Shown piece by piece: positions 4,659 through 5,030 of a stretch of 5,820 bases of DNA. Within the stretch, counting starts at the first letter, position 1. The number at the start of each line of letters is the position of its first letter. The position numbers and the translations under genes are program-made. Origin of the DNA: a virus (Duplodnaviria > Heunggongvirae > Uroviricota > Caudoviricetes); the IMG/VR virus record IMGVR_UViG_2778261154_000012; one strand, 5' to 3'. The notes beneath the pieces were generated by a model. It saw nothing but the letters and a program-made list of their open reading frames with translations. It did not search any database and had not been told where the DNA came from.

Positions 4659-5030
4659 TCAGAGCCGTATGTTTGTAGCGGGTTCAATACTGATAATTTC
4701 TGCTGAGATAAGCATCCCGGCAAGCCAGAGCTCTCCGGACAGGTCTTCATCCTGACATATCAGTTCGCCAATATTAATGGTGGCCATGATATCTGTTTCC
4801 CCTGTGCGCTCATCCTCGACTTCTTCATAAGGCAGCGTTGCGTACAGGCTTTCAATAGCGCAACTGATAACATCCAGTCCGGTCAGATTGCCGCCGACAG
4901 TAACTTCGAATGTTTCGCGGTATTCCCATAGTCCGAAAGTTAATCGAACGGTTTGTTTTGCCATGCGTCCGCATGACGTCAGATTCGGGTCATAGTTCAT
5001 TATTTGCGGTTGAGTATTCTGGGTGTTCAT
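4659..5030 (-). CDS. Hypothetical strongly acidic protein (123 aa)
   Basis: Same frame as track ORF 4659..5105. Start placed at ATG 5030..5028 (MNTQNTQ…), 7 nt after AAGGGA; the ATG at 5036 is too close to the Shine-Dalgarno, and the 5105 start would overlap the SPFH gene. By hand count there are 20 Asp/Glu against 6 Arg/Lys, with the acidic residues concentrated in residues 60-116. Confidence 0.55.
   Translation of the reverse strand: MNTQNTQPQIMNYDPNLTSCGRMAKQTVRLTFGLWEYRETFEVTVGGNLTGLDVISCAIESLYATLPYEEVEDERTGETDIMATINIGELICQDEDLSGELWLAGMLISAEIISIEPATNIRL

Follow-up and report, generated by a model that had tools for sequence, protein, structure and literature searches.

Small acidic DUF5406 proteins of temperate phages and conjugative plasmids as candidate anti-restriction proteins

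The stretch of DNA analysed here (5,820 nucleotides (nt) of the IMG/VR virus record IMGVR_UViG_2778261154_000012, Caudoviricetes; hereafter the window) carries on its minus strand, as do the integrase (int) and excisionase (xis) genes, an open reading frame (ORF) the reverse complement of which reads from ATG to TGA and encodes an acidic protein of 123 amino acids (aa) (Table 1). The protein matched the Pfam family PF17400, DUF5406 (E = 3.7e-22; 79.2 bits, the cutoff being 25; residues 12-116 aligned with the whole profile, positions 1-116 of 116), and the phage family phrog_3409 (E = 9.8e-53; profile positions 1-120 of 120), and no Pfam family other than DUF5406 was matched at E<=0.1; a scan against NCBIfam gave no match. 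By these profile matches it is shown to be a stand-alone, single-domain member of DUF5406. The family is already catalogued as a domain of unknown function and the identical protein is present in RefSeq, so that neither is a discovery of this study; no mention of DUF5406, PF17400, phrog_3409 or MNYDPN was found in the literature searched. An anti-restriction role of DUF5406, which we regard as plausible from sequence features and gene positions, is weighed below against its rivals.

Table 1. Features of the window in order of position (position 1 is the first letter of the window).
Position	Strand	Feature	Basis or remark
50-598	+	Dit-like tail/baseplate protein	adjoins the serine recombinase gene
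595-2118	-	large serine recombinase, 507 aa, of a second integrated element	
2193-2594	-	yecE (DUF72) fragment, beyond the integrase gene	
2621-3934	-	tyrosine integrase	Pfam/PHROG; ends the leftward early operon
3990-4226	-	DUF1233 excisionase	Pfam/PHROG; near the end of the leftward early operon
4235-4381	-	48-aa ORF (hyp48)	ORF
4385-4627	-	DUF4222 gene, 80 aa, ATG 4627	domain from residue 45 of the long ORF; phrog_285 on 42-121; RefSeq 243 nt
4659-5030	-	acidic 123-aa coding sequence, full-length member of DUF5406 (PF17400)/phrog_3409	ORF, Pfam, PHROG, identical named protein, pN/pS 0.19
4659-4661	-	TGA stop of the DUF5406 gene	sequence
4728-4751	-	D-E-D-L-S-G-E-L, residues 94-101, conserved acidic loop just before invariant W102	alignment
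4752-4832	-	residues 67-93, including YEEVEDERTGETD; variable in sequence and length across the family, stays acidic	indel-rich alignment columns
4983-5000	-	M-N-Y-D-P-N, residues 11-16, most conserved motif of the family	52-member alignment
5038-5043	-	Shine-Dalgarno-like AAGGGA, 7 nt upstream of ATG 5030	sequence; kept in relatives
5045-5063	-	GC-rich hairpin, 7-bp stem GCCCGGC/GCCGGGC, 5-nt loop, between the SPFH stop and the DUF5406 Shine-Dalgarno sequence	
5071-5700	-	SPFH/Band-7 gene, 5'-shortened by an IS1203/IS629-type element	Band_7 profile 44-176 only; in-frame stops upstream
5731-5820 (start approximate)		end of an IS1203/IS629-type IS3 element, last 90 bases, TGAACCGCCCCGG...	5725-5820 100% identical to the IS1203 end

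The start codon was conserved in nearly all of the about 80 close relatives compared, in which the Shine-Dalgarno sequence reads AAGGGA, AAGGAA or AATGGA. Two alternative starts, GTG 5105 (which gives the longest ORF and is used in the phiP27 record) and ATG 5036, were dropped because they were not conserved in these relatives. The same 372-nt gene is annotated by RefSeq in a related prophage (locus L179), and the identical 123-aa protein, named 'DUF5406 family protein', is present on 329 contigs. The 35 distinct alleles were all intact, their pooled ratio of nonsynonymous to synonymous polymorphism (pN/pS) was 0.19, and 38 of the 67 variable sites were third codon positions; the gene is therefore under purifying selection.

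DUF5406 is a sizeable family, with 132 matches in a database clustered at 90% identity and 502 clusters at 50% identity (E<=1e-3), and most of the members stand alone and are 105-125 aa long. Members were recovered from Enterobacterales, Pseudomonas/Stutzerimonas, Pigmentiphaga, the Halomonas phage phiHAP-1 and 200-kb Pseudomonas putida phages, and also from genomes labelled Treponema, Mesorhizobium and Rhizobiales. In an alignment of 52 members, from which all conservation figures given here derive, the M-N-Y-D-P-N peptide, W35, G51, L66, W102, A110, I112 and I115 were invariant, and the protein of the window has the consensus residue in all of them (within the peptide M11, Y13, D14 and P15 are strictly invariant, N12 and N16 conserved in at least 90%). 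R29, R38, D94 and E95 were each conserved in at least 96% of the members, and the C-terminal strand follows the pattern A-E-I-x-x-I. In many homologues the M of MNYDPN is the first residue; the ten residues that precede it in the 123-aa protein are a lineage-specific extension. The motif stays, internally, in fusion proteins; among 20 longer homologues that were scanned, one extension was a Lar domain and one RMF-like, the others being without a Pfam match, and these extensions were too heterogeneous for a consistent functional inference to be drawn from domain fusions.

The first-pass annotation of the window had counted 20 Asp/Glu against 6 Arg/Lys by hand and had placed the acidic residues mainly in the C-terminal two-thirds. 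The computed composition gave exactly these numbers (6 Asp and 14 Glu, 1 Lys and 5 Arg; no His; isoelectric point (pI) 4.05; net charge -14), and confirmed the C-terminal clustering: residues 1-40 include 3 acidic and 4 basic ones, whereas residues 41-123 include the other 17 acidic ones and 2 that are basic. When compared with 655 crude ORFs from the neighbourhoods of 38 homologous loci, the net acidic charge per residue (0.114) was matched by only 1.1% of the ORFs; the Lys/Arg content (4.9%) fell in the lowest 1.4% and the Asp/Glu content (16.3%) in the top 11%. The charge is unusual, not extreme, and results mainly from a scarcity of Lys and Arg rather than from an excess of Asp and Glu.

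This acidity is a property of the whole family, the 52 diverse members having pI values of 4.05-4.68 and net charges of -6 to -17, and it is unevenly distributed along the chain: the family mean was +1.1 (slightly basic) for the motif and first hairpin, -2.3 for helix 1, -4.7 for the segment equivalent to residues 67-93 (17-30 residues long) and -4.4, never above -2, for the DED loop, in which positions 94, 95, 96 and 100 are acidic in 100%, 98%, 73% and 85% of the members, respectively. A strong net negative charge, as expected of DNA mimics, is thus present in the protein of the window and likewise in the 52 homologues. The retention of charge without conservation of sequence suggests selection for an anionic surface, which would be compatible with nucleic-acid mimicry or with the binding of a basic surface and proves neither.

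An AlphaFold2 model of the 123-aa protein, built on the 52-sequence alignment (predicted local distance difference test (pLDDT) 83.8; predicted template modelling score 0.73), predicts a compact single-domain alpha+beta sandwich consisting of a beta-hairpin (24-34, 37-47), a helix (51-65), three strands (68-72, 79-87, 90-93), a short helix (100-105) and a last strand (107-117). An independent model of a Stutzerimonas homologue with 53% identity (pLDDT 84.9) had the same topology, the motif being likewise not resolved. Residues 1-20 were modelled with low confidence, and the pLDDT of the motif was about 44-51 in both models; N-Y-D-P-N combines the highest conservation in the family with the lowest model confidence in both. 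Neither the single protein nor the 52-sequence profile matched a chain in PDB sequence searches (0 matches at E<=10), and Foldseek gave nothing at E<0.3. The best structural neighbours, ribosomal protein eL20/L18a and PurS-type alpha+beta sandwiches, were rejected as a fold assignment because only half of the protein was aligned, at 6-10% identity, and because their biology is unrelated. Invariance, low model confidence and retention in fusions would together be typical of a docking or oligomerisation peptide, not of a folded core.

The genomic setting of the family was surveyed at 38 diverse loci (the sources included a contig scan with strict peptide patterns, which gave 11 loci) by BLAST clustering of the neighbouring ORFs; 144 flanking ORFs were also classified with Pfam and PHROG. 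Neither approach detected a partner gene conserved over these 38 loci, and the recurrent neighbours were limited to integrases (2-6 genes downstream, at least 12 loci), CI-type repressors (5-17 genes upstream, 9 loci) and single-stranded DNA-binding (SSB) or ERF proteins. The int-proximal early position noted for the window at first reading therefore holds across the family, with the integrase downstream in at least 12 of the 38 loci. The elements concerned are lambdoid, Mu-like (with Mu transposase, GemA, Gam and DUF3164), P4-like (with a primase) and N15-like, and in them the DUF5406 gene has repressor and recombination genes on one side and the integrase gene on the other. The DUF5406 gene behaves as a free-standing accessory gene and, because no conserved partner was found, its protein most likely acts on its own.

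Besides phages, conjugative plasmids carry the family. We found 159 Enterococcus plasmids, mostly conjugative megaplasmids (133 typed as conjugative), with a DUF5406 homologue just downstream of repA and traE; the homologue was matched by hhalign with 98.6% probability and has a pI of 4.20. A second small acidic ORF (96 aa, pI 4.37) follows immediately after the homologue, as on the Enterococcus faecium plasmids L180 (2816-3466) and L182 (12004-12654).

Genes connected with restriction evasion were found near some of the loci. On a Lactobacillus johnsonii plasmid (L183, 5282-9595) the end of the DUF5406 gene is the start of an orphan N6 DNA methylase gene (8360). A split dcm C5 methylase gene lies 1.5 kb upstream, the set as a whole is located downstream of repA, and it looks like a restriction-evasion gene cluster. 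A C5 methylase gene is the next gene to DUF5406 in L006/L111, and DPPY-type methylases are encoded 2-6 genes away in L107, L105, L104 and L088. In the distant homologue P0212 the Lar domain is fused N-terminally (the sole Lar fusion among the homologues scanned), and on pSMVRE20L an ArdC-like gene is located 2.3 kb downstream of DUF5406 (on this plasmid the ArdC-like and toprim proteins come after an IS110 element). Gam of phage Mu, an inhibitor of host nucleases, is also among the neighbours. The Lar restriction-alleviation domain (PF14354) was absent from the 123-aa protein in the Pfam scan, and a Lar-like ORF in the vicinity of some E. coli loci was discarded (only weak tblastn matches, E 0.002, about 5 kb off and on the opposite strand). 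Other neighbours are unrelated to restriction (Rha/Ant, dUTPase, deaminase, SPFH).

The window itself represents the left end of a prophage of the phiP27-like Shiga-toxin type; its bases 4300-5730 are 95-96% identical to phiP27 and many phages encoding Shiga toxin 2a (Stx2a). In an intact relative, L179 (E. coli UTAK-5, next to mlrA), the same genes are present and the same-strand series extends upstream as far as an XRE/CI-type repressor, which places the DUF5406 gene in the leftward early (pL-type) operon; no sigma-70-like promoter was detected in 3900-5820. The block hyp48-DUF4222-DUF5406-SPFH is 98% identical in L179 and is joined there to a different integrase and excisionase, and it is therefore exchanged between prophages as a cassette. 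The GenBank/RefSeq record of phiP27 (L001, 1794-2511) uses the longest ORFs, P27p03 (DUF4222) and P27p04 (DUF5406), which overlap by 92 nt; with the starts corrected according to domain boundaries, Shine-Dalgarno sites and the RefSeq annotation of L179, the two proteins measure 80 and 123 aa and their genes are separated by a gap of 31 nt, with no overlap.

The SPFH gene directly upstream of the DUF5406 gene is 828 nt long when intact in relatives, and its interruption by the insertion sequence (IS), the end of which matches thousands of places in E. coli genomes, may have a polar effect on the DUF5406 gene when the early operon of this strain is transcribed. The hairpin between the two genes (-17.1 kcal/mol, z -2.1; stem conserved and loop variable in relatives) was not called as a terminator and is not a classical one because it lacks a U-tract; it may act in processing, stability or translational coupling. 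Beyond the integrase gene, the yecE fragment lies between two different elements, a layout shared by a few complete E. coli genomes, and yecE appears to be doubly occupied.

Our preferred reading, which we put forward tentatively, is that DUF5406 represents a stand-alone establishment or anti-defence lineage of mobile elements, the anionic surface of which blocks a DNA-binding enzyme of the host. The protein would act alone: through its polyanionic face it would bind to, and so block, the surface with which a host nuclease or restriction-type enzyme contacts nucleic acids, and the NYDPN peptide might serve as a docking or oligomerisation element. DUF5406 would then be a functional analogue of the DNA-mimic anti-restriction proteins, belonging to an independent lineage with a fold of its own. 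The evidence that would speak for an anti-restriction function is the family-wide acidity, including that of the hypervariable segment, and the location of the genes in phage early regions and in regions of conjugative plasmids near repA/traE. Phage early regions and the vicinity of repA/traE are where mobile elements tend to place anti-restriction and establishment functions. Orphan methyltransferase neighbours, the Lar fusion and the ArdC-like neighbour also point, weakly and circumstantially, to a role in anti-restriction or establishment.

Several observations weigh against this proposal. The protein is less acidic than classic mimics (16% Asp/Glu, net charge -14). Arg29 and Arg38, both conserved, and the N-terminal hairpin, which is basic, could pair with conserved acidic residues inside the fold, so that the conserved carboxylates may be structural instead of forming a mimic surface. 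A methylase gene was found within two genes on either side in at most 4 of the 37 diverse loci covered by this census, two of the four being near-identical, the ArdC-like neighbour was absent from another Enterococcus plasmid, and the fusions are heterogeneous (Lar once, RMF-like once, the rest being extensions of unknown type). The associations with restriction genes are suggestive, but occasional, sparse and partly redundant phylogenetically. In PADLOC-DB, which covers defence systems, neither the 123-aa protein nor its neighbours had a match, and DUF5406 has no entry in the supplements of the EVADES anti-defence catalogue (10.1101/2025.06.06.658234) or of a study of plasmid leading regions (PMC11541004).

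Nearly as likely as the anti-defence proposal is that the protein is a host-takeover or regulatory inhibitor of a conserved housekeeping protein. Candidate targets would be RNA polymerase, a nucleoid protein or a replication, recombination or SOS factor, to which the acidic surface and NYDPN would bind during early lytic growth or plasmid establishment. A more far-reaching form of the anti-defence proposal, which we consider unlikely, is that the DUF5406 proteins are nucleic-acid mimics with an anti-restriction or anti-defence function and form a hitherto unrecognised family of new structure, common to temperate phages and conjugative plasmids, in which the DED loop, the acidic sheet and NYDPN form the surface; it would extend over lambdoid, Mu-like, P4-like and N15-like phages of Proteobacteria and Spirochaetes and over plasmids of Enterococcus and lactobacilli.

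Two further explanations have little probability. For its length of about 105 aa, the domain has many conserved polar and acidic residues, which might indicate a small carboxylate-based metal-dependent enzyme (e.g., a nuclease or phosphoesterase) with the invariant or near-invariant D14, E42, D94, E95 and E111 in its active site, but no enzyme family was matched by sequence or fold, the domain is very small and has no conserved His or Cys, and the persistent acidity of the hypervariable segment would be unexpected in an active site. It is equally improbable that the gene is part of a local module with the SPFH/Band-7 lipoprotein and DUF4222, e.g., a membrane-associated superinfection-exclusion or FtsH-modulating cassette. 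The order hyp48-DUF4222-DUF5406-SPFH is indeed kept in P27-like and related prophages of E. coli despite a different integrase and attachment site, and SPFH genes are found near DUF5406 in Citrobacter braakii L088 (8783-10890, with NfeD) and in L140 (1057-1884). However, BLAST clustering over the 38 loci gave no conserved partner, SPFH occurred once and DUF4222 twice within two positions at 37 loci, the plasmid homologues have no SPFH neighbour, and in the window SPFH is broken by the IS while the DUF5406 gene is intact. According to the neighbour censuses the module is unsupported outside the enterobacterial lineage, and it was rejected. In L088 and L140 the genes are arranged differently, and the association was not seen outside Enterobacterales.

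The first-pass annotation had compared the protein with anti-restriction proteins of the Ocr and ArdA type; taken as homology, this reading found no sequence or fold match in Pfam or in the PDB sequence and structure searches. That the protein is a divergent true member of either family, for which only composition and early-gene position speak, is refuted by these searches and hardly tenable: for Ocr, no family model was matched at E<=0.1 in Pfam and no PDB chain at E<=10, and the predicted fold is not the all-helical elongated dimer of Ocr; for ArdA, the model (PF07275) was not matched, no ArdA chain was among the structural matches of the predicted alpha+beta sandwich, and one compact domain was predicted in place of the elongated three-domain fold. 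That DNA mimics are characteristically encoded close to int, as the first-pass annotation also assumed, is not established knowledge. Finally, a spurious or decaying ORF without function is already refuted by the purifying selection (pN/pS 0.19, 35 of 35 alleles intact), the 502 clusters at 50% identity (E<=1e-3), the confident AlphaFold models and the conserved Shine-Dalgarno sequence and start codon.

We consider DUF5406 a reasonable candidate for an anti-restriction screen: it is a sizeable family under purifying selection that stays acidic even in its variable parts, it lacks a structural neighbour in the PDB, and it is carried by phages (in early regions) and by conjugative plasmids (beside repA/traE). 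If the proposed role is true, and the protein inhibits restriction-modification (R-M), bacteriophage exclusion (BREX) or another nuclease-based defence, the DNA mimics would gain a new fold, and a gene of many Shiga-toxin prophages and of Enterococcus faecium megaplasmids would have a function.

Among the nearest known systems is Ocr (gp0.3 of phage T7), which inhibits type I R-M and BREX and resembles the 123-aa protein in size (117 versus 123 aa), low pI, early expression and action as a stand-alone protein. The two differ in that Ocr is an all-helical dimer whereas an alpha+beta sandwich is predicted here, in that there is no sequence similarity between them, and in that the 123-aa protein is much less acidic (16% versus about 29% Asp/Glu in Ocr). 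The gene positions differ as well, that of Ocr being the first T7 gene to enter the cell, whereas the DUF5406 gene is found close to int, where a prophage early operon ends. To our knowledge, DNA mimics have no common fold, and a differing fold therefore does not exclude mimicry. ArdA, which is encoded in the leading regions of plasmids or transposons, is likewise acidic, broadly conserved and distributed over mobile elements of Gram-negative and Gram-positive hosts including conjugative plasmids; it is, however, an elongated three-domain protein of about 165 aa, in contrast to the single compact domain of about 105 aa in DUF5406. We also count Ugi, AcrIIA4 and T7 Gp2 (small alpha/beta DNA mimics and acidic polymerase inhibitors) among the nearest known systems.
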